Origin: Candidatus Latescibacterota bacterium
GTDB lineage: Bacteria > Latescibacterota > UBA2968 > UBA8231
Assembly (NCBI GenBank): GCA_965223905.1
Contig: CBDCXV010000009.1
Coordinates: 32,001-96,000, forward strand
Direction of reading: 5' to 3'
DNA: 64,000 bases
Part shown: positions 41,501-52,592 of the stretch, one piece after another
Layout: each line of letters starts with the position of its first letter
Numbering within the stretch: the stretch's first letter is position 1
Notes under the pieces: model-generated
Database searches by the model: none
Seen by the model: only the letters and a program-made list of their open reading frames with translations
What the model was told of the DNA's origin: nothing
Position numbers and translations under genes: made by a program

Positions 41501-41982
41501 TCGGATTCGGTGAGATTCAGGGTGAGCACCTCCAGGCGGGGGGTCCGCTGCCAGACGGACAGGGCCTTGCCGCCGTCATCTTCGACTTCCTCCGGGGCGT
41601 AGTCGCCCCAGGAGACGGCCACTTCCACCGAGTCGGCGTCTTCCGGGACGAGGAAGCTCAAGCCCATGGAGGAAGGGAAGTAACCCTTCCTGGCAGCCTT
41701 CTTTTCCTCGGTCGACTCTTCGGCGAGGCCAGCCGACTCCGGGACTTCCCCGTCCATGTCGTCATCTTCGTCCGCGTCGGCGCTCGTATCAGCTGCCGAG
41801 CCGGACGGGATCAAAAAACCGGCCAGGTACCAGTTCGAGGGACGCCGCCATCCAGGAAGGCGCTCGTCGGCCAGGGCATGGCCGACCCAGGGCCCAACCA
41901 GATCGAGATTCAGGGCCTCAATCAGGCGTTTGCGTACTTCGGCAGAGCTACCGGGTTTGCGGGTCTGGGGTTTGTCGGTCAC
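38575..41982 (-). CDS. drmA: DISARM helicase DrmA
   Basis: FPTGGGKTEAY, RYTLRLLTLDQ, QDELHLISGPLG, ASTAT, ATNMISVGLDI, YIQATSRIGR. Confidence 0.93.
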   Translation of the reverse strand: MTDKPQTRKPGSSAEVRKRLIEALNLDLVGPWVGHALADERLPGWRRPSNWYLAGFLIPSGSAADTSADADEDDDMDGEVPESAGLAEESTEEKKAARKGYFPSSMGLSFLVPEDADSVEVAVSWGDYAPEEVEDDGGKALSVWQRTPRLEVLTLNLTESDDPVVCDVPESGGLLLHVVERKVVAQDLEKHIPPGTRSVSVFLVNNRTPVETDADRAYVFQPELKVSGRRPFVPRPDLRGTRADRWDDRVADLHYADTPSYATGHGVSADWEIIDGECRLLRTAWIPRAEVEKTETAEVPGVELAMEALGSLPDGAAAEDALRPLVDQYRTWGEARQAELEDLEGTRRETAAELLRLADLAADRIERGIAVLVADEDALDAFRVANRAVARALRQRLGIEEPGWRAFQLAFILLNLPGLIDPADKDRETVDLLFFPTGGGKTEAYLGLAAFAMVLRRLRHPDAQGCAAAGVSVIMRYTLRLLTLDQLARASGLVCALELERAEAGGRYGDWPFEIGLWVGKAATPNLLGKKGDGRSDSARTKVRQYKADPRGKPSPVPLESCPWCGDPFGPDSFALLPNDDQPRELRIVCMNFECDFSGDRALPILAVDEPIYRRLPAFLIATVDKFASLPWMGPSGALLGGADRYDGSGFYGATDTGRGTRLPAPLLPPDLVIQDELHLISGPLGTMAGLYEAAIEALCVRGTGGNAFRPKIVASTATVRQAQDQIQALFGRSLTQVFPAPGPDRRDSFFARTATANVPGRVYVGIAAQGRNPKVIMRRAWLALMGTAQKAYVEAGGRPNKENPADPYMTVLGYFNSLKELGGARRILEEEIQNTIKGYGIRKRIGETTGLFRDRRTFSEVVELTSRVSTDKVAEARRRLECGFHENDRVDCAIATNMISVGLDIQRLGLMVVLGQPLRHDEYIQATSRIGRDDERPGLVVSLLNIHKPRDRSHYERFRHYHETFYRSVEVGSVTPFSARALDRGFAGALVTLARHGRPELTPALEVKRIGEVRAELERLLLDAFLERVRQQPITDEEEREQYLRSVQNRVVDLLDSWTKVIDDYRSAGVEVQYQRYEIPGLRHPRPLLREILDKEFETEHHAKFRANRSMRDVEPNVNLFLEDLGGFRRKADR

Positions 41983-42114: not shown

Positions 42115-42687
42115 TCATTGCAACAGCTTGGCCACCGCCCGCCACATCTTGTCAAATGAGGGGGAGCGTTGGCGCGCCAGCTCCATGTCAAAGCGAGCGG
42201 TCAAGGCAGCTTGATCAGCTGTCGGACTGTAGGTCGGAAGCATTCGGCGTAGCCACTCCTTGGCGCCCTGGATGGATTCCGGATTTGGCGGGGGAGATAC
42301 ATCCTGTGAAATACCCGAGCCTGCGATCGACTCGGACGCCGCCACAAACCAGGTCTCATACTCGTACTTCGCCAACACTGTTTCGATTTGGCGATCCGGT
42401 CTGGCATCGCGGGCGCGTTGCAGGATATCTGGACCGAGTTCAGCCGGGCATTCTCCCTCGGCGTCCAGCAAAACTAATATGCAACCCCCGTCACCGACGC
42501 GGGCCGCTGCCAGGCTCATGTATCGTTCCAGCTCGCCCTCCTTGAGAATTCTCTGGCGACGCACGCGGATCGGTCTCAACACATTCGGCGGGGCAAGTGG
42601 GGAAACTTCCGTGCTGATCCGCCGAATCAACACGGGGACGGCCTCCACTTCGCCGTCCCCTTCGACAATAGCGGTGATTTTCACCAT
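42115..42687 (-). CDS. DUF4276 family (TOPRIM-like) protein
   Basis: IVEGDGE, LLDAE..CPA, EYETWF, PESI..AKEWL, RSPSF. Confidence 0.8.
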   Translation of the reverse strand: MVKITAIVEGDGEVEAVPVLIRRISTEVSPLAPPNVLRPIRVRRQRILKEGELERYMSLAAARVGDGGCILVLLDAEGECPAELGPDILQRARDARPDRQIETVLAKYEYETWFVAASESIAGSGISQDVSPPPNPESIQGAKEWLRRMLPTYSPTADQAALTARFDMELARQRSPSFDKMWRAVAKLLQ

Positions 42688-42688
42688 G

Positions 42689-43921
42689 TCAGGTGTCAGT
42701 TTCGCCGCCGAACATACTTAGCTGGGTCGGCCTCGAGAGCGCGGGATCGGGTATCAACTGATCCATGCGTAGCAGCTCACCTGCAGTGAAAAGATGGTTT
42801 CGAAGCATGGCCCGACTCGTCTCGTCCAGCGGGGCTAGCCGCGTCTCTCCATCCTCCGAAACCACGGCCAGTATGGACTCCAACGGGATCGTATCCCGAT
42901 CCAGGAGGTCCGCGCTATGGGTGGCAACAATCACCTGCGCGTGTTCGCTCCCCTCGCGCAGCACGTCGGTCAGCACACCCGCTGCGGCTGGATGGAGGGA
43001 GCCCTCCGGCTCTTCGATGCCGATCAGCTTCGCTTTTCCCGACTCCATGCCGGCGCCCTGGTAGAGGGCAATGAGCACCCCGAGAACGCGCAACGTTCCG
43101 TCCGAAACGTTGTTGGCGAGGAAACGCCAGGGATGAGGGTCGCCGCGGACTTCCTGACGAAACTCCAACGTCAGCTTGGGTCCCACCGTCTTCGACTCCA
43201 CGTCCACCGTTCCCGGGACGACCTTGGAGAGATACTTACCGACGCGCTCCGCACTCTCGGGCGCCTCCGACTTCAGGTTTGCGAGAACGCTGGCGATATT
43301 GCTTCCGTCCTGCTTAAGGAGATCGCCGGGATCCGGCGACTGCAGCTCGCGAACCTGCTCGGGATGGATGTTGTAGAAACCCATCCCGGCGAGCGCGTCG
43401 TAGACAGGACGGAACGCCGGGTAACCGGCTACCTGCATGAGGTAGAGACGGTCGTCTCCCGCCCCGGGCGGATGGGCGAATGAAGTGGTGATCGGACGCC
43501 CGTTCTCTACCCGGAAGAGTCCCGTCCGGTCGCTGTCCGCGGACTTGACCACGCACTCTTCTTTCCGCACGACGTAGCGCCCTTTCGGCCGGGCGCCTAC
43601 TTCGAACACGTACCAGCCAGTTGCCTCTGGAAGCCGGAAATTGAGACGGACGCCGAAGTGATTCGGATGACCTCGGGACCTCCGCCGGACTTCGTTGATG
43701 CCGCCGCGCTCGTGCAGGGCGTGGTCCAGGGAGAAGCGCAGGGCCTGGGCGGTAAAGCGGAGGGCGTCGAGGAAGTTGCTCTTGCCGGCGCCGTTGGCGC
43801 CGACCAGGATCGTCAAGGGCGTTAGCTCGACGTCGCAGGCGGCGATGCTCTTGTAGTTTCGCAGAGCGACCCGGGTGATGATCCTTGGATCGAACTCAGA
43901 TGTCGTGGACGTTTCCGTCAT
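42689..43921 (-). CDS. ABC-type ATPase (AAA_15/AAA_21)
   Basis: Walker A GANGAGKSN, signature VSDGT, Walker B IEEPE..LHP, THS. Confidence 0.88.
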   Translation of the reverse strand: MTETSTTSEFDPRIITRVALRNYKSIAACDVELTPLTILVGANGAGKSNFLDALRFTAQALRFSLDHALHERGGINEVRRRSRGHPNHFGVRLNFRLPEATGWYVFEVGARPKGRYVVRKEECVVKSADSDRTGLFRVENGRPITTSFAHPPGAGDDRLYLMQVAGYPAFRPVYDALAGMGFYNIHPEQVRELQSPDPGDLLKQDGSNIASVLANLKSEAPESAERVGKYLSKVVPGTVDVESKTVGPKLTLEFRQEVRGDPHPWRFLANNVSDGTLRVLGVLIALYQGAGMESGKAKLIGIEEPEGSLHPAAAGVLTDVLREGSEHAQVIVATHSADLLDRDTIPLESILAVVSEDGETRLAPLDETSRAMLRNHLFTAGELLRMDQLIPDPALSRPTQLSMFGGETDT

Positions 43922-43978: not shown

Positions 43979-44422
43979 TCAGCGCCCTGCGTCCCTGGCC
44001 GCTTCCTCTATCCAATCATCCATGTTGTTGTAGCCATCATGTTTATTCCAGAGATAGAACGGGTAACCAGCCGGTATTTTGCCGCACCGTTTAGTCGTGT
44101 TTCCATCCAGATCCTTGATTTTGCTGATGTCGATTCCAAGTAAACCGTTGTTCCGCTTCTTGCTCTGCTCTATTTCGTACTTTACCCACCTGCTTGAACA
44201 GGTGCGAGCTCCTACCAATACGACGGTTACGGAGGTGCCATGAAGCTGGTTGTCGATCCACCGCTTAATGGCCGCATCCCCCTGTCGCTTGATCTTCTCG
44301 AAATCCGCAGCGTCAACAAAACCCGCTGCCTCCTTTCCCTGCGTCACCCAGCTGTTGCGGACGACCATTGCGCGAGACACGTCGGGTTTGTACTTGAAAC
44401 TGAAAAACACTCTACGAGCCAT
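43979..44422 (-). CDS. ThsB-like TIR domain protein (DUF1863)
   Basis: RRVFFSF, TSVTVVLVG..T..SRWVKYEI (catalytic Glu), NGLLGI; AGGAG RBS. Confidence 0.88.
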   Translation of the reverse strand: MARRVFFSFKYKPDVSRAMVVRNSWVTQGKEAAGFVDAADFEKIKRQGDAAIKRWIDNQLHGTSVTVVLVGARTCSSRWVKYEIEQSKKRNNGLLGIDISKIKDLDGNTTKRCGKIPAGYPFYLWNKHDGYNNMDDWIEEAARDAGR

Positions 44423-44774
44423 TAGCTTGTTCTCCTGAAACATTGAACAGGACAAAGATGGAGGAAGGGAAATAACCCTTCCCGGCAGCCTTCCGTTCCT
44501 CGTTCGACTCTTCCGCAAGGCCGGCCGACTCCGGGACTTCCCCGTCCATGTCGTCGTCTTCGTCCGCGTCGGCGCTCGTATCAGCTGCGGACCCGGACGG
44601 GATCAAACAACCGGCCAGGTACCAGTTCGACGGCCGCCGCCATCCAGGAAGGCGCTCGTCGGCCAGGGAGTGGCCGACCCAGGGCCCTACCAGATCGAGA
44701 TTCAGCGCTTCAATCAGGCGGTCGCGTACTTCTGCAGAGGTACTGGGTTTGCGGTCCTGGGGTTTGTCGGTCAC
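44412..44774 (-). pseudogene. Truncated second copy of drmA 5' end, fused to the C-terminal tail of a TM-effector gene
   Basis: 44458-44782 aligns with 41666-41990; tail IFVLFNVSGEQANGS resembles VLVVFYLPGEQAINNGS of the 46624 gene. Confidence 0.85.
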
Positions 44775-44942
44775 GGGGACTTACTTCTTGGCTGTCTTTG
44801 ATGCATCACTGGAAGAGCAGTTCAGCGTCTGACCGGTGCCGGCGATGGGCATCGATAAAATCGGCAGGGTGGATCATCGCAGGGCTCGCTCGGTGTTGTC
44901 CTGCCATCGGGAAGTTCGCGCAGCAAACCAGAACCCCACCGC

Positions 44943-46520
44943 TCACATCCCCCACACATCGATCTCGACCCCGCTGTCCGACACCCGGCGGCAGTGAAAC
45001 AGTTTGTCCGCCCAACGCCGACCTTCACGCCGGTCGAAAATCACCAGGTGGCCCGCCTCCCCTCCGCAGCGATCCATGTATTCGAACGTCTGTTCCAACC
45101 CCTCGGCAATCGTCTGCTCCAAGCTCCTGTGCAGCACCTTGCACTCGACGACGAACCGGCGCGTCCGCTCTCCTTGCGGCCACACGATCAGCAAGTCCGT
45201 CCGCATCCGCCCCAATCCGTACTCGCGCTCGATGCGACCGCCGCTGTTGACGATCCGCTGCAAAAACGCCTGCAGCAGCAACTGCGGGCCGGCTTCCCTG
45301 TACTCGAATCGCTCGACCCAGTGTTCGGAGTGCTCGCGGAAGAACTCCTGGAACGCCGACAGCAGCTTGACCACGTCCAGCCTCCCCTCGGCATCCACAT
45401 ACCAGGCGGCGTCCTGCTCGAATTCCCCCTGCACCACCCACGTCAGTTCGCGCGGCACCACCTCGGCATAGATCGGGTTGGCGATGCGATACGGCAGGTC
45501 TTGTGCGACCAGCCCGAGATCCCGCACATACTCGATGTCGCGGTCGGCGAAGTGGCGTTCCTCTCCGCCGCTCAACAGCGGCTCGACAACCCGGCGAACC
45601 CGCTCCTCCTTGAGTTTGTCGGCCAACTGGTCCAGATGCGTCTCGCGCAGCAGGATGAGCTGCTCCTGGGCGGCGCGGATGGCTTCGGCGGTGACCGGAC
45701 GATGCCACGCCTGCGCACATTCGCCCTGGAAACAGGCTTCGTCGCCCAGCGCGTTGACCAGCCACGGCTGCCCTTGTGTCTGCGTCCAGACCGTCTCCAG
45801 CGCCTCGGGGGTAAACACCTGCCCCGTCTCCTCGGTGTGCTGACCGAGCAGCGCCCGCACCTCCTCCCGGGAAAAGTCCCCTAACCGCAGGGATGCCGCT
45901 TTTATATTGAACGCGCTGCCACCGGCGATGATGGCGTTCTCCGCGGTGGATTGAATGCGATAGTCGCGCACATCGCGCACCCCGCACAGCACCACGCTCT
46001 GCGGAAAACCCTCTGGCCGCAGATCGTATCCCGACCGCAACTGGCGCAGCACCGACAGCAAGGAATCGCCGATCAAGGAATCGATTTCGTCGATGAGCAG
46101 CACCAAGGGCTTCGGGTCGGCCTTGGACCAGCGCGTCAACGCCACTTGCAGAGCGGCGTGGGGACCGAATTCGGCTAAGATGTCCGACCAGACCGCGAGC
46201 AGAAATTCGTCGTCCAGGGTCACGCTCGCTCGCAACGCCAACGTTCCCAAAATGGTGCGCATGACCTGTTCCACGTCTTCGCGCCCGGTTTGCCCGGCCT
46301 CGACATTGACGTACACGCAGCGATAGGTCCCTCCGGCGTTGAGCAGGTCGCGCAGCGCCAGGAGGACCGATGTCTTGCCCGTCTGACGCGGCGCATGCAA
46401 AACGAAGTACTTCTCGTCCCGCACCAACGCGAGCACCTCGGCGAGGTTCAGCCGGTCCAACGGCGGGATGCAGTGGTGCTTTTCGGGCTTGACCGGACCA
46501 GTAGTGCTGAAAAAACGCAT
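44943..46520 (-). CDS. P-loop ATPase with C-terminal PD-(D/E)XK nuclease-like domain
   Basis: APRQTGKT, LLIDEID; C-terminal EYGLGRMRTDLLI...VVECK. Confidence 0.82.
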   Translation of the reverse strand: MRFFSTTGPVKPEKHHCIPPLDRLNLAEVLALVRDEKYFVLHAPRQTGKTSVLLALRDLLNAGGTYRCVYVNVEAGQTGREDVEQVMRTILGTLALRASVTLDDEFLLAVWSDILAEFGPHAALQVALTRWSKADPKPLVLLIDEIDSLIGDSLLSVLRQLRSGYDLRPEGFPQSVVLCGVRDVRDYRIQSTAENAIIAGGSAFNIKAASLRLGDFSREEVRALLGQHTEETGQVFTPEALETVWTQTQGQPWLVNALGDEACFQGECAQAWHRPVTAEAIRAAQEQLILLRETHLDQLADKLKEERVRRVVEPLLSGGEERHFADRDIEYVRDLGLVAQDLPYRIANPIYAEVVPRELTWVVQGEFEQDAAWYVDAEGRLDVVKLLSAFQEFFREHSEHWVERFEYREAGPQLLLQAFLQRIVNSGGRIEREYGLGRMRTDLLIVWPQGERTRRFVVECKVLHRSLEQTIAEGLEQTFEYMDRCGGEAGHLVIFDRREGRRWADKLFHCRRVSDSGVEIDVWGM

Positions 46521-46623
46521 CGTTGTATCCTCTCGAAAGCAAGACGGAAAGGGGTGCTATCCGGAAGGGTAGGTAAAGAAACCTATCCGCCTTTGTACGG
46601 AATCGGCGACGCCGTCCCGGCCT

Positions 46624-47052
46624 CTACGAGCCGTTATTAATAGCTTGTTCTCCTGGAAGGTAGAATACGACCAGAACAATCGCGATGATGAGAGCTCCGT
46701 AGAACGGAACCAGCGTTATCGACAAGGTTGAGCCAATCCAAGAGCGCTTCCAACCCGTTCGGAACGCAGCGGTGGCCATTGAAAAGTCGACTTCACTTTC
46801 GTCCACCACCCGGACATGGTCGTAGAGCGCTCGGAACAGGCGTTCCTGCCACAGGTAGTAACCGTCGAGGTCCCAGAAGACGAGGACAGGTGTCAATGCG
46901 ATGTAGGCAACATGGAGGCGATCCTCTATCGCCAACAGGACGAACAGGGCAGTGACCAGAACCACGATCCACCCCTTCACGCGGAACGAGTCGGTCGCAA
47001 GGCGGTTGACCACCCCTTGGATCAATTCAAGATGCTTGAGCTTTGATTCCAT
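46624..47052 (-). CDS. Small multi-pass (3-4 TM) membrane protein, TIR-associated effector type
   Basis: MESKLKHLELIQGVVNRLATDSFRVKGW, hydrophobic helices, LDGYYLWQERLFRALYDHVR. Confidence 0.75.
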   Translation of the reverse strand: MESKLKHLELIQGVVNRLATDSFRVKGWIVVLVTALFVLLAIEDRLHVAYIALTPVLVFWDLDGYYLWQERLFRALYDHVRVVDESEVDFSMATAAFRTGWKRSWIGSTLSITLVPFYGALIIAIVLVVFYLPGEQAINNGS

Positions 47053-47599
47053 TGGCATTGCCTGCGGGAATGGATGGCTTGTTCGATGGTATTTGCTGCC
47101 TCCCGGGCACCCTTCTCGCAGTTGCTGGTTCCACCGGATCAGGAGCATCGTGGGGTTTGAACACTATCGTCCGTACGTCCGGAAGGTCCTGCATTGCCCT
47201 TTCGATCCGCACCCGTACATCTGCCCAGGCAAGTCCGCCGAGCCCAGCGCCCAAGGGAGGAATCGCGATGGAGCAGATTTTCCGAGACCGGACTTCGGCA
47301 ATCAGCGCATTCAGACCCGAGTCGATGTCTTCGATCCTGGACTTGCCCCGCCAGTGCCGCTTGGTCGGGAAGTTGATGATGTAGCGAGGCGAAACCAACT
47401 GTCCCGTTTCGAACACGAACATGCGTCCAGGCTGGACTTCCTTCTTGCGACAGGCAGCTTCATATGCTTTGAAATTATCAGGCCAGGACTTCTTGAACTG
47501 CAGGGCGATTCCCCTGCCCATTAAGCCGACGCAGTTGACCGTGTTTACGAGGGCTTCCACATCCTCGTCGAGGATGTTGCCTGTCTTGTACTCTACCAT
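47027..47599 (-). CDS. Macrodomain protein (DarG N-terminal type), lacking the DarG C-terminal domain
   Basis: ALVNTVNCVGLMGRGIALQFK, IINFPTKRHWR, SIAIPPLGAGLGGL. Confidence 0.85.
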   Translation of the reverse strand: MVEYKTGNILDEDVEALVNTVNCVGLMGRGIALQFKKSWPDNFKAYEAACRKKEVQPGRMFVFETGQLVSPRYIINFPTKRHWRGKSRIEDIDSGLNALIAEVRSRKICSIAIPPLGAGLGGLAWADVRVRIERAMQDLPDVRTIVFKPHDAPDPVEPATARRVPGRQQIPSNKPSIPAGNANGIKAQAS

Positions 47600-47721: not shown

Positions 47722-48891
47722 TCATGTAGCAGTTATCCCTTCGAGTGGCTCGATCTCCTTCAACTCAAGACTTGTCCGGATCTCGCCAACTCCAGTCTCT
47801 TCAACTCGTTCAATGCAGTCCACCTCGTATCGTTGAGTGTCCACGATCAAACCACTCAGCGCGCCTTGCAAGTCACTGGCGGAACGGCCGTGATGCGAGA
47901 TCCCTTCGTCGTCCCGCAGGGTCCAGAGGCCCGATTCCACGTTGACGTGTATGAAGACACCCCTGAGAGTGACCTCCTCAACCGTCAAGTCCTTCTGCGC
48001 CACGATCAAGTTGTAGAGTCTCTCTGCGGAATCTCGAGAAATCGCCCTGGTGGATGAGAACGTCCGGTCCGGTGCCGACCACTGGTATCCAAGGGCCGAT
48101 TCCGAGTCAACCAGGAACTTCAGCAATCGCCGATAGGCAGCTACGAGGTGACCCCTGTTCTGACGCATAGTCGAAAGTCCTGCCTCCGGTGCATCGATGC
48201 CTTCGGTCAGGGCATCGACCCGATCCAGGGCCCGGGACAGACCTACGTATCCGAGCAAGTCAGGCTCCGCCCTCGACTGCAAATGGATGGTGAAGGACCC
48301 GTGGGAAAAGCCAGAGACGTCCATCATCCAGTTAGACTCGTCCGAAATCATTTTTCGTGTATCGGGGCCGACATCGCGAAGAACCTTCCGATATGCCTGG
48401 CCAACCAGATTCTGGAAAAGTGACAGACATATGGCCAGGTTGGTAACGCCTATCTGTGCCGCGATGTGGGATTCGGGAGGGCTCATCCGAAGGTGCAAGA
48501 CTGCCTTGCCACGGGACGTTACCTCCTGCGTCACAGCGTTCGGCTCCACAAAGTCCGACACTCGAAGGTCGGGCTCGGGGAGCCACTTCTCAGGGGGGTG
48601 ACCTACTGGAGACAACGCCAAGCGGTCCTTCACTTCGGTGTCACCAGTGAGCGCCGCAGTATAGTACTCGTCAACTTCAGGGATCGTAAGCGCACTGCGG
48701 ACGTCCAGAATACCGGCCTCCAGTTGATACAACCGATTTGCTGACATGGGCGTCAGGAGGTATGCATCCCCGCCGTCCGGGGCCTGGACCAGCAATCCGA
48801 GATAGAGTTGTCCCACCTCATCACTGGCCACGATCACCTGAGGTCCATCGTAGTAGATCAGGGTTCTCACAAGTCGGACGGATCTGCGCAT
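47722..48891 (-). CDS. DUF6575-like N-terminal domain protein
   Basis: LIYYDGPQV....GQLYL, WLPE; GFSHGSF; 3 nt downstream of the preceding gene. Confidence 0.65.
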   Translation of the reverse strand: MRRSVRLVRTLIYYDGPQVIVASDEVGQLYLGLLVQAPDGGDAYLLTPMSANRLYQLEAGILDVRSALTIPEVDEYYTAALTGDTEVKDRLALSPVGHPPEKWLPEPDLRVSDFVEPNAVTQEVTSRGKAVLHLRMSPPESHIAAQIGVTNLAICLSLFQNLVGQAYRKVLRDVGPDTRKMISDESNWMMDVSGFSHGSFTIHLQSRAEPDLLGYVGLSRALDRVDALTEGIDAPEAGLSTMRQNRGHLVAAYRRLLKFLVDSESALGYQWSAPDRTFSSTRAISRDSAERLYNLIVAQKDLTVEEVTLRGVFIHVNVESGLWTLRDDEGISHHGRSASDLQGALSGLIVDTQRYEVDCIERVEETGVGEIRTSLELKEIEPLEGITAT

Positions 48892-48894
48892 TCT

Positions 48895-49287
48895 TCAGCC
48901 CCGCTTCAGTTTGACTGGCACGGCCAATGGAACCGGGTCGAAGTTTGCTCGGCGCCACCAGGACACGTGGCCCGGCTTGCCACAGGTCTTCTTGGTAACG
49001 CCAGCGGTTCGAGAAAGGGTAAGGGAAACAATGGCTCCACCCTTGAACCGTGGCAATTTCAAGACACCACTGGCGCTCTTGCGAACGAGGAAAAGCGATA
49101 CCGCCCGTGCCTGGCACTCAGGTACCGAGAACGGTCGTTCCGGGTAGAGTGCTCTCTGGGAAACGAAATCGCAGTCAGTCGGGGGAATCGTCCGAACGAC
49201 CCGGAAGTGCGGTTCAGAAACGGGCGCCCCCGCGTCTCTTGGCGGGCAGTCCTCCGGAAGTTCTTCGTACCAGTCGTTCTCAGCCAT
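48895..49287 (-). CDS. Hypothetical protein, ADP-ribosyltransferase/RES-like fold suspected
   Basis: LPEDCPP..A, FRVV, DF.S, C.ARAVSLF, HVSWW. Confidence 0.6.
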   Translation of the reverse strand: MAENDWYEELPEDCPPRDAGAPVSEPHFRVVRTIPPTDCDFVSQRALYPERPFSVPECQARAVSLFLVRKSASGVLKLPRFKGGAIVSLTLSRTAGVTKKTCGKPGHVSWWRRANFDPVPLAVPVKLKRG

Positions 49288-49843: not shown

Positions 49844-50305
49844 TTACCCGGACGACCTTCGCCGGCGTGAAACAGAATGGTTCGCTAAACTGTTCAGAGT
49901 TCCGAATAGCAGGTCATCCGAAGGTAGATGAGAATAAAACTGTGGGGGGTGAAAATCCTCAACGACTTGACGAATGTTTTCCAGGGTGCAAGGATCCTGG
50001 ATTCTCTTTACCGAGGAAAGGACCAAGGCCGATACCTGCCGACTATTTCCTATGTAGAAATCGAAATGTGTTTTTTCGATGCAGATTTTTTCACCGTAGC
50101 GGTCCCATATTTCGGAAGGGATTCCATGAGAAACCGTTTTTATTTTCGCATTAGCGACTATCCTGCCCACAGGTTGGGTTGCGTATATCCAAATCGTGGT
50201 TCCAGATTTCAATCTAACAGTTCTATTCCTGAGTTCTACCGTCTTTTCCCCAGACAGAATCAGGTTCGCGTATTGAGGCTTAAGAGAAATTATGGCTTGG
50301 TCCAT
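49844..50305 (-). CDS. ASCH domain protein
   Basis: IISLKPQYANLILSGEKTVELR, IWIYATQPVGRIV, PPQFY. Confidence 0.88.
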   Translation of the reverse strand: MDQAIISLKPQYANLILSGEKTVELRNRTVRLKSGTTIWIYATQPVGRIVANAKIKTVSHGIPSEIWDRYGEKICIEKTHFDFYIGNSRQVSALVLSSVKRIQDPCTLENIRQVVEDFHPPQFYSHLPSDDLLFGTLNSLANHSVSRRRRSSG

Positions 50306-50312
50306 GAACTCT

Positions 50313-52469
50313 TCAATCCAATACTCTTTCCACGATTGCGGAAAGTGCTTCATGGGAAAGTCGCTGTGCTGTAACCAGATTCGCTCCTCCCACACATCCC
50401 ATCTGCTTCAGGTCCCGGTAAGGAATACTTCTGCGGAAAAGGAACAGGTTATCAAAGGTCATCGCCGTGAGCTCACCATTAGAATTTGCCCTCTGGCCTA
50501 TTTCCTCCTCCGATAATACTCCTTGCCTCCGGAGGTTCAATACCGCTTGGGTCTTCGTCAGCTTGTCACAGAATGTAGCCCTCGCAATGGCAACGGCCGC
50601 CTTCTGTCTGCCGCTGACATAGAAGACCAACACTGTGCCCCGTCCGACCATTCTCTGGGTCCCGACCCGGCAGAAATAGGCCCTTTCCAACCGCAATGCA
50701 GCTTCCTTACCAGGAAGAAATGATGTCTGACTATCGGTCGGGGGTACCAATCCATGGGCAAATCTCTCCCTAATGGGCACAATTACGCCGCCTCGGCCGG
50801 GACAAATGATCGAGCCGGGAGACACCAAGGTTTCAAAGTCAAAAAGGGAAAGCGTTATAGGCCAAGATCTGTTATTAAAGACAATGCCGGTGTTGGACAA
50901 CTCGTCGTGCTTTGGCATGCTGTGAGCAAGTTCAAAACCAGTAGCTTCCTTGAAGTCATTTCTGAAGGACTCCCAATTGTCATTTGTAATTACTCCTCTA
51001 TGGGACACCTTCCTGAGACTCTGTAAAGCATTTCCTTCTTCACCTCGAATCGGCTGGAATCCCCTGCGGATTGCCACTTCTCGGGTCAGTCTTTGCCCTG
51101 GCCCCGTCTTCAGGTCGAACGCGAATAGTTGTCCCAGATGCCCCCGGTTGGTCATGGATTCCAACAGGTAATCGATCGCTCTGTCAGCATTCCAGTTCCC
51201 CTCGTCGACATATAGGTATGCGTCCGCCTTCCTGGACAAACTGGTTCTTGCCTCCCATGATCCTATTCCTACTATTCCCTCCCCCGTTCGCACAACCAAT
51301 CTCGTCCTCGGAGACTGCGTTGTTCCAGCGGCAAGACAATAGGATATAGCGGTTTCATCAATCCCCATCTCTCTCAGGAAGCTCTCGGCCCCCGCATCGC
51401 CTTCATCAAGATTTGAAACCCTGATTTCCTCTTGGCCAACAGCTACCGAGAACTCAGGCAGGTATGTGTCCACCTCCCCGAACGGTTCCCTGAGGTCAAG
51501 GGGTGATATAACTCTCAGGCTGTACTTTTCCAGAAGTGTCCCGCTGTGTCGAAGAATTCTGGCGTCGCGAGTTACAAAACCGAAGGCTTTATGATGAATG
51601 CACGATGCCAAGTGAACAAGATCCGATTGCTCATTTGCGGCCCACTTACCCGTTCTTGTATCAGCCACCGAAAGTTTGTCTTTCAGATCCTCAATCAGAC
51701 GCGCCAGTATTCCTGGCGATATTTCTGGCAAGGTCGGGAGGGTTCTGGCAAATTCCAGAACAGGGTCGTCGGACACATCTGGCGAGCGACGTTCCAGTTC
51801 CCTCCTGAATTCAGGGGTGACCCTGACACGTATTTCGCCGTTTAGAGCCGAGGAGAATATGAAAGCTGACTCTCCCGCATCCCGTTGCCTCACAGCATCG
51901 AAGAATACGTTCAGATCGATCACATAGGAGGGCGTGGGCAACAGGGGCCTAGCGTAGGCTATTTGCCTTCCGTCATCACCACTGGATGCCCCGGGAAACT
52001 GTCTCCTACCGAAAAGGGATGGGACGTCCAGTTCGAGTTCATAAACGTTTATCGTCCTTTTCGATTTTCCAGGGATCTGGCGTACAATTCGAAACCCTGA
52101 CCCCTGCCAGAATTTGTTCGCCTCCAAGTCCGAAGCCACTCTGGAACGAATGGTCAACCAACTGTTGTCTTCCCCGTATTCCTTGAGCGCCCCGACCAGT
52201 CTTCCTCCTACGCCTTCAAATCGATACTCAGGGAGAACATGGACTTGGAAGACCTTGAGGTGGGGATAGCTTCCGCCAAAGAACAGATGACCACGTAGTT
52301 TCTTCGTACTCCTGTCGATGGCGATCCAGAGGTGTCCTTTCATTGCGGCTTCTGTATAGGCACTTGCGGGGAGAAAACCGAGAGAGGACCTATTGTCATC
52401 TGCGAGTTGACGAATCTGGTCGATGTAATCCACTACACCGGCAGGATCCTGAAGGATTTTTTCAGTCAT
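50313..52469 (-). CDS. GNAT acetyltransferase - PIN - (degenerate GNAT) - EVE/PUA-like multidomain protein
   Basis: VHVLPEYRFEGVGGRL..ANKFWQGSGF (GNAT); YVIDLNVFFD..DLVHL..FVTRD (PIN); IVPIRERFA..AYF..GTVLVFYVS (PUA-like). Confidence 0.8.
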   Translation of the reverse strand: MTEKILQDPAGVVDYIDQIRQLADDNRSSLGFLPASAYTEAAMKGHLWIAIDRSTKKLRGHLFFGGSYPHLKVFQVHVLPEYRFEGVGGRLVGALKEYGEDNSWLTIRSRVASDLEANKFWQGSGFRIVRQIPGKSKRTINVYELELDVPSLFGRRQFPGASSGDDGRQIAYARPLLPTPSYVIDLNVFFDAVRQRDAGESAFIFSSALNGEIRVRVTPEFRRELERRSPDVSDDPVLEFARTLPTLPEISPGILARLIEDLKDKLSVADTRTGKWAANEQSDLVHLASCIHHKAFGFVTRDARILRHSGTLLEKYSLRVISPLDLREPFGEVDTYLPEFSVAVGQEEIRVSNLDEGDAGAESFLREMGIDETAISYCLAAGTTQSPRTRLVVRTGEGIVGIGSWEARTSLSRKADAYLYVDEGNWNADRAIDYLLESMTNRGHLGQLFAFDLKTGPGQRLTREVAIRRGFQPIRGEEGNALQSLRKVSHRGVITNDNWESFRNDFKEATGFELAHSMPKHDELSNTGIVFNNRSWPITLSLFDFETLVSPGSIICPGRGGVIVPIRERFAHGLVPPTDSQTSFLPGKEAALRLERAYFCRVGTQRMVGRGTVLVFYVSGRQKAAVAIARATFCDKLTKTQAVLNLRRQGVLSEEEIGQRANSNGELTAMTFDNLFLFRRSIPYRDLKQMGCVGGANLVTAQRLSHEALSAIVERVLD

Positions 52470-52592
52470 CTGGGATTTACAAACGATAGCTGTGTGCCTC
52501 AATTGCGGGCGAATAGCTTTGACAGCCGTACCATGTCCTTATTCCGATGCGCGACGGGGAGTCTGCGCACTCGCGGCCAAGATTGCAACCTG

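Follow-up and report, generated by a model that had tools for sequence, protein, structure and literature searches.

A split membrane-protein/TIR gene pair matching the defence candidate PDC-M50 in the cargo region of a class 1 DISARM operon

How did two genes whose relatives overlap in one operon come to lie 2.2 kb apart, and could they still act together? The question is raised by a 64,000-nucleotide (nt) stretch of DNA from Candidatus Latescibacterota bacterium (assembly GCA_965223905.1, contig CBDCXV010000009.1, positions 32,001 to 96,000; hereafter the window), in which a small membrane-protein gene and a ThsB-type TIR gene are separated by two open reading frames (ORFs). An earlier note on this DNA had described the pair as a Thoeris-like system reassembled from two half-cassettes. 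We conclude, with moderate confidence in the whole explanation including its mechanism and history, that the pair is a rearranged member of PDC-M50, a Thoeris-like two-gene module, in the cargo region of a class 1 DISARM (defence island system associated with restriction-modification) operon. The pair, the repeat at its broken junction and the two intervening ORFs are as follows.

46624..47052, minus strand: membrane-protein gene, PDC-M50A family, 142 amino acids (a.a.) (PADLOC PDC-M50A, E 2.7e-45; alternative start at 47058)
46622..46655, minus strand: junction repeat copy 1, at the 3' end of the membrane-protein gene; TIR start codon destroyed (ACG plus a 6-nt insertion)
44943..46520, minus strand: AAA-type ATPase ORF, 525 a.a., the bulk of the 2.2-kb spacer (Pfam AAA_22, 4.2e-09)
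44412..44774, minus strand: chimeric ORF, 120 a.a., a duplicate of codons 1-105 of the DISARM helicase gene drmA (44774-44458) in frame with a 15-codon membrane-gene tail (44457-44412)
44410..44437, minus strand: junction repeat copy 2, a canonical membrane-gene stop/TIR start overlap with an AGGAGA ribosome-binding site, laid out as the intact junction of a genome of the same genus (G001)
43979..44422, minus strand: ThsB-type TIR gene (PDC-M50B), 147 a.a., intact (Pfam ThsB_TIR, PF08937, 3.7e-24; PADLOC ThsB, 1.5e-59)

The repeat is the scar of a broken membrane-gene/TIR operon, and it had been read correctly as such. On the minus strand the membrane gene ends in CAGGAGAACAAGCTA-TTAATAAC-GGCTCGTAGAG (46655-46622) and the TIR gene begins at CAGGAGAACAAGCTA-AT-GGCTCGTAGAG (44437-44410), both strings sitting where the earlier note had placed them. 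The gapped pattern CAGGAGAACAAGCTA-N(2-8)-GGCTCGTAGAG has two matches in the window against 0.00 expected (100 shuffles), and these two are also the only ones across the 7.9-Mb genome; the exact degenerate pattern had no match in the metagenome contigs. Upstream of the junction strings the likeness continues for 31 nt at 81% identity (repeat family D3). The same note held that the TIR gene is preceded by the last ~15 codons of another membrane-gene copy, and this is borne out: the stub peptide, IFVLFNVSGEQANGS followed by a stop, is the canonical C-terminus of close 140-a.a. homologues (P0002-P0013), and its tail matches the C-terminus in G001 (..INVSGEQPNGS, stop). The intact membrane gene ends in ..FYLPGEQAINNGS and a stop, a tail also present in P0001 and in G002, a second genome of the same genus; because this end has two extra codons, the ATG normally inside the overlap is lost. 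Only part of the proposal that the dead first codons of a lost TIR follow the intact membrane gene can be kept: the ATG is indeed missing, but of the 11 nt after the gap (GGCTCGTAG) nine are the membrane gene's last two codons and stop, and 2 nt lie beyond the stop. Two components of the gap had been omitted, the fusion of the stub to the duplicated drmA 5' fragment (hereafter drmA') and the 525-a.a. AAA ORF; the stop of the chimeric drmA'-stub ORF overlaps the TIR start. The membrane-gene/AAA junction is spanned by contigs of three runs, each from a different study (X1, X3, X8), and the drmA'/stub junction by contigs of two (X1, X8), so an assembly artefact is unlikely; X1 may be the source sample of the window's assembly.

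Both proteins match the models of PDC-M50, a phage defence candidate from the 'guilt-by-embedding' set presented in the available part of Payne et al. 2024 (bioRxiv 10.1101/2024.01.29.577857). The A model (E 2.7e-45) aligns residues 33-162 of the long ORF with model positions 1-130 of 134, and the B model (E 2.2e-50) matches the TIR protein over model positions 1-158 of 162. The location inside a DISARM operon is also what guilt by embedding, as set out in that part of the paper, leads one to expect. The window differs from PDC-M50 in gene spacing: the A and B genes of that candidate are taken to be adjacent, whereas here the genes lie 2.2 kb apart with two ORFs between them.

In other genomes the two genes are usually direct neighbours. 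We found 639 homologues of the membrane protein; linkage was assessed in the best 80 loci of 273 relatives in genome contigs and, from the TIR side, in 80 metagenome loci whose TIRs are 75-84% identical to the window's. A TIR gene lies near the membrane gene in 58 of the 80 membrane-gene loci, being of the M50B type in 55 and another TIR_2/ThsB-type TIR directly downstream in three more (L030, L033, L040). For 51 loci the TIR start could be mapped, and in 47 of them it falls between -41 and +28 nt from the stop of the membrane gene. Of the TIR-side loci, 72 reach far enough upstream, and in 56 of them the membrane gene comes directly before the TIR; the same is true of four of the eight shorter loci. 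In G001 the membrane gene and a 165-a.a. TIR gene overlap by 11 nt. The earlier proposal that the native unit is a contiguous, overlapping membrane-protein/TIR pair thus agrees with this overlap, with the tight junctions and with the catalogued PDC-M50A/B pair, and the search that it called for, for contiguous operons among homologues, has found them.

The partners are not equally conserved. At least three TIR subtypes (147 a.a., ~165 a.a. and ~176 a.a.) pair with membrane proteins 50-69% identical to the window's, and this combination of a conserved membrane protein with variable TIRs matches Thoeris, where the effector is fixed and the sensors can be exchanged. The part of Yirmiya et al. 2025 available to us (bioRxiv 10.64898/2025.12.03.692087) defines new Thoeris types by the same reasoning. 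One locus (L079, 6416-9757) has the membrane gene followed by a ThsB-like TIR, a 417-a.a. ORF, a SLOG cluster3 protein and two more TIR genes.

The window's TIR has every residue that is at least 90% conserved among 52 family members, including E83 (within ..KYEI.., 100% conserved in the 52), which we take to be the catalytic glutamate. The subtype to which it belongs has a ThsA homologue upstream in 15 of the 80 metagenome loci (directly adjacent in nine), and five of these ThsA neighbours were confirmed by the PADLOC ThsA1 model (E 5.5e-196 to 1.5e-200). One TIR subtype thus appears to serve either SIR2-SLOG ThsA or this membrane protein. Since the subtype also occurs beside ThsA, the window's TIR is probably a signal-making ThsB, and the Thoeris-like reading is stronger than when it was first put forward.

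In the mechanism that we propose, the 147-a.a. TIR would be a ThsB-type sensor that makes a nucleotide signal derived from nicotinamide adenine dinucleotide (NAD) on infection. Given that TIRs of this subtype serve SIR2-SLOG ThsA as well, the likeliest candidate for the signal would be a cyclic ADP-ribose (cADPR) isomer, for instance 3'cADPR. The ~140-a.a. membrane protein would be the effector, presumably binding the signal, oligomerising and damaging the membrane, with abortive infection as the outcome. The TIR gene still has its AGGAGA ribosome-binding site and stop/start overlap, and its upstream partner is now the chimeric ORF; these would be the native signals, kept behind a drmA'-tail leader ORF. 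We infer the general scheme, in which a TIR-made signal of the cADPR type gates a small membrane effector, from context. It has parallels among the systems of Yirmiya et al. (bioRxiv 10.64898/2025.12.03.692087), where the available text describes small membrane-protein Thoeris effectors activated by cADPR isomers and counts 29 putative effector types.

The nearest of these is type V Thoeris, which in the same text consists of ThsB and ThsF (DUF2270, three predicted spans) and is activated by 3'cADPR. As described there, it shares with the window's pair a ThsB-type TIR, a small effector of three predicted spans and a TIR cluster common with type I. The window's membrane protein, in contrast, is not a DUF2270 protein in a sequence-level test, and PF10028 (DUF2270) had no match in 168 genomes of the phylum including the window's own (control genomes matched).

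ThsA, a SIR2-SLOG protein, is an effector activated by a diffusible TIR product. The likeness to type I Thoeris lies in the nine metagenome loci with the window's TIR subtype directly downstream of ThsA, among the 15 of 80 that have ThsA; the difference is that the partner here is a membrane protein and that the window has no ThsA. The latter had been stated before and agrees with our scan of the genome, in which the ThsA1 model gave one partial, SIR2-like match (model positions 10-221), on another contig (C11) outside the window.

The effector of type II Thoeris has membrane helices fused to a Macro domain and is activated by histidine-ADP-ribose (His-ADPR). The window recalls this arrangement in its run of Macro, membrane-protein and TIR genes on a single strand, with the Macro gene reaching at its end into the start of the membrane gene. 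It differs in that the Macro protein is separate and of the DarG type, with a homologue in two of the 80 membrane-gene loci. We rejected the Macro and membrane proteins as a split type II effector: the only PADLOC match of the Macro protein is DarG, its best NCBIfam match is the DarG equivalog, and it recurs in just those two loci. The SLATT domain, found in membrane effectors of type VII Thoeris and of CBASS (cyclic oligonucleotide-based antiphage signalling systems), was absent from the Pfam matches of four family members at E up to 10, a comparison at the sequence level only.

The membrane protein itself had been called a four-span protein, and here the count has to be lowered: it probably has three spans. 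The AlphaFold2 (AF2) model (pLDDT, the predicted local distance difference test score, 85) has three long helices (2-42, 46-82 and 114-131). We read this model as an N-terminal amphipathic helix leading into span 1, span 2 continuing into a conserved cytoplasmic helix, and span 3; the cytoplasmic face is predicted to be highly conserved and positively charged. A database protein (P0015) matches the window's at 98% identity up to and including residue 106, after which it has an unrelated 27-residue tail; it is another broken variant of the membrane gene.

Several results weigh against the proposed scheme. No Pfam family was found for the membrane protein at E up to 10 (four family members), nor any recognisable ligand-binding domain; the nearest ESM Atlas clusters had no common Pfam family, and a Foldseek comparison of the AF2 model with PDB gave no match at E <= 0.001. 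The effector role is drawn from context. A full-text literature search on the name 'PDC-M50' returned no match, and a scan for promoters and terminators gave three and seven sites, against 1.8 and 6.5 by chance. An intact TIR gene is lacking beside the membrane gene in 22 of the 80 loci, so the membrane protein may also act without a TIR; TIR remnants are present in only three of the 22, and ten of the 22 adjoin DISARM genes.

These last counts bear on a different role for the membrane protein, as a DISARM accessory or as a tether or regulator of a TIR that would itself be the NAD-depleting effector. Such a role would suit the lack of a known ligand-binding domain, the ten loci with DISARM and the membrane gene and no TIR, and the position of the gene beside DISARM genes in 46 of the 80 loci, usually directly after drmMI or drmD (within 6 kb, DrmMI is upstream in 29 loci and DrmA downstream in 12). 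It fits poorly with the near-identical TIRs that pair with the SIR2-SLOG protein ThsA, whose activator is a diffusible TIR product, and with the 22 TIR-positive loci that have no DISARM gene within 6 kb. Embedding in DISARM is moreover a general property of unrelated cargo systems in the available part of Payne et al. (bioRxiv 10.1101/2024.01.29.577857). We regard this role as quite improbable and continue with a signal-gated effector of the PDC-M50 module.

How the module was split can be followed in relatives. Among 61 genomes searched (60 relatives and the window's own, G000), four related ones have the module in four states: intact in G001, split in the window, split with a truncated TIR in G002, and reduced to a deletion remnant in G020 (same family, other genus). 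In the window both ORFs are whole. G002, 97% identical to the window across the region, has the same insertion and a 366-nt deletion (window 44737-44372) that removed most of drmA', the stub and TIR codons 1-17. In G020 a deletion has joined the membrane gene, at codon ~131, to an internal part of a G001-type TIR that now has stops.

The origin of drmA' points to a local event. The duplicate is 317 nt long, with a core repeat (D1) of 300 nt at 91% identity to 41965-41666, and in a tree and in identities it groups with the resident drmA of G000 and G002 (91.8% each; 81.4% for G001 and 76.0% for G020). The split is therefore best ascribed to a local duplication or rearrangement within the lineage and not to a second import, and the acquisition of two copies, as once proposed, loses its footing. 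The ancestral layout would have been an overlapping membrane gene and TIR, as in G001, broken within the G000/G002 lineage by one of two routes, both of which appear to fit the sequence. In the first, a tandem duplication of ~2.8 kb would have run from the membrane-gene tail to drmA codon 105, and the AAA ORF would later have taken the place of the first TIR/HEC-01 copy; the joint drmA codon 105, tail, TIR, HEC-01, drmA fits the duplication of a 2792-nt block (the spacing of repeat D1). In the second, a fragment made of the AAA ORF and the drmA 5' end would have been inserted with duplication of the membrane-gene tail.

The competing history, in which the lineage took up two membrane-gene/TIR cassettes separately and kept a complementary half of each, draws on the divergence of the parts. 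The two tail copies differ at six of 31 nt and by two indels, which exceeds the 2-3% divergence between G000 and G002. The window's TIR is 43% identical to that of G001, against 87% for the membrane proteins, and the G020 remnant is of the G001 type, so within this clade the TIR and the membrane gene have not shared one history. Set against this, the drmA 5' copy to which the stub is joined is nearest the resident drmA (91.8% vs 81.4% and 76.0%), a signature of local duplication, and the stub has the clade-specific tail ..NVSGEQANGS. No more than 2 nt past the membrane-gene stop could have belonged to a first TIR, and the genome has no second copy of either gene. Two acquired cassettes thus seem unlikely to us, and the half-cassette account is, as far as the sequences go, better replaced by local duplication or replacement inside a DISARM cargo hotspot.

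What remains of drmA' in G002 (37 nt, L018 5335-5371) is 100% identical to the real drmA start of G000 (window 41946-41982), and G000's own drmA' (window 44738-44774) differs from these 37 nt, which suggests that gene conversion may have taken place between the drmA' fragment and drmA. Between drmA' and the AAA ORF (44818-44942, minus strand) lies a 23-codon ORF remnant (MIHPADFIDAHRRH..) that resembles the N-terminus of a 140-a.a. ORF in L033 (7606-8028), where that ORF comes after the membrane-gene/TIR pair; the remnant is probably what is left of another cargo gene formerly located ahead of drmA.

The AAA ORF had no PADLOC or NCBIfam match. Twenty-four of the 61 genomes matched the query, mostly through this ORF, and the copies share the ORF alone. 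The window's genome has further copies (80-81% nt identity) on contigs C11 and C1, and one relative (G044) has nine matches, several of them head-to-tail. The ORF is a member of a strongly expanded, multi-copy paralogue family. A mobile element with defined ends (a transposon) was considered and rejected: the copies have only the ORF in common and both of its flanks are unique in the genome. Contigs of one RNA run (X20) include stretches of the AAA ORF and the Macro gene's end, and neither the membrane gene nor the TIR gene; being contigs only, they are uninformative on expression.

Does the split pair still work? Between G000 and G002, both of which are split, the membrane gene has five non-synonymous and seven synonymous changes and the TIR gene three and five. 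Combined, eight of 20 changes are non-synonymous, against an expected fraction of 0.75 if neutral (binomial P = 0.0009), and both genes appear to have been under purifying selection since the two genomes separated. All genes of the module are on one strand, which we count in favour of function, and since the proposed signal would diffuse, the gap between the genes does not in itself have to disable the pair. Other observations speak against a working pair. The selection test rests on 20 substitutions; synonymous divergence is a mosaic between neighbouring genes (0.014-0.099) and the intergenic spacers of G000 and G002 differ by only 0-3.4%, so recombination with intact alleles of other strains could mimic purifying selection. 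The window's membrane protein also has a private G61D change, in the motif FWGLDGY, at a position that is glycine in 64 of the 80 loci; A, V, I, T and W occur there in other members, an acidic residue in none. The change is a real allele: an X1 contig has it and otherwise shows no differences, and X3, X8 and G002 have glycine.

The pair could instead be a dead remnant, inactivated by the rearrangement or by the later G61D, with ORFs intact for lack of time. Three different lesions among the four relatives (the 366-nt deletion of G002, the junction deletion and TIR stops of G020, and G61D in the window) are what one would see in a decaying module, and across the wider family many copies (22 of 80 loci) are disrupted or have no TIR. 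In one of its loci (L084, 6351-7601) a 416-a.a. ORF, whose N-terminus looks transposase-like, lies between the TIR and a shortened membrane gene whose match stops at residue 107. On the other side stand a TIR with every conserved residue, its retained ribosome-binding site and overlap with the upstream ORF, the synonymous bias in both genes (combined P = 0.0009) and the tolerance of position 61 for five other residues. We hold a dead remnant to be possible and on balance doubtful. The module does appear to be eroding in this clade and G61D is suspicious; whether the window's copy still works in trans would seem, from these sequences, close to an even call.

Taken by itself the locus is an ordinary product of defence-island turnover and no new kind of system. 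The gene pair was already catalogued as a candidate; here it is split, probably by a local rearrangement, inside a DISARM operon. The pair is widespread (639 membrane-protein homologues) and has so far been catalogued as a candidate only, and the locus documents both reshuffling and erosion of DISARM cargo, from the intact module through the split one and the split one with a truncated TIR to a deletion remnant. As a tentative extension, PDC-M50 might be a further Thoeris type, with a domainless effector of ~140 a.a. and three spans that responds to the cADPR isomer of ThsA, and mainly a cargo of class 1 DISARM; the window would then hold a natural, still selected, unlinked version, with the TIR behind a drmA-derived leader ORF and signalling in trans over 2.2 kb. 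If the TIR subtype is interchangeable with type I ThsB, lysates of cells with the TIR alone should activate ThsA, and the membrane protein should answer to the same molecule.

The surrounding class 1 DISARM operon has the order drmD-drmMI-[cargo]-drmA-drmB-drmC, all five genes being on the minus strand. Its genes and the remaining annotated cargo are the following.

59915-56622, minus strand: drmD (PADLOC DrmD, E = 0)
56618-52593, minus strand: drmMI (PADLOC DrmMI, E = 0)
49844-52502, minus strand: PDC-M11A/B, a PADLOC candidate in the cargo region
47027..47599, minus strand: DarG-like macrodomain gene (Pfam Macro, 1.2e-25; PADLOC DarG, 1.5e-78), its 3' end overlapping the membrane-gene start
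42115..43921, minus strand: candidate pair HEC-01A (ABC-type ATPase) and HEC-01B (DUF4276), between the TIR gene and drmA (PADLOC, 2.9e-156 and 1.9e-70; Pfam AAA_21 and DUF4276)
41982-38575, minus strand: drmA, DISARM helicase, the source of the duplicated 5' fragment (PADLOC DrmA, 1.3e-265)
38578-36788, minus strand: drmB (PADLOC DrmB, 4.5e-84)
37559-36009, minus strand: ORF with drmC as its C-terminal part (PADLOC DrmC, 6e-77)

The cargo between drmMI and drmA spans ~10.6 kb and consists of PDC-M11A/B, two unknown ORFs, the DarG-like macrodomain gene, the membrane gene, the AAA ORF, the drmA'-stub ORF, the TIR gene and HEC-01A/B. HEC-01 gave no protection in the assays reported in the available part of Payne et al. 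(bioRxiv 10.1101/2024.01.29.577857).

The Macro protein scores 269.6 bits against the NCBIfam DarG model (cut-off 250) with the macro half only (model positions 1-162 of 338), and no DarT-like gene was noticed among the neighbouring ORFs scanned around it. In G000, G002 and G020 the Macro gene immediately precedes the membrane gene, and G001 has a 44-residue C-terminal remnant of it. With a homologue in two of 80 membrane-gene loci, it is a clade-specific neighbour and no conserved part of the membrane-gene/TIR pair. The two unknown ORFs (47722-49287, minus strand; 130 a.a. and 389 a.a., the latter with a weak DUF6575 match at its N-terminus) travel together: they are upstream of the Macro gene in the window and in G002 and between the module and drmA in G001 and G020, so the order of the cargo has been permuted.

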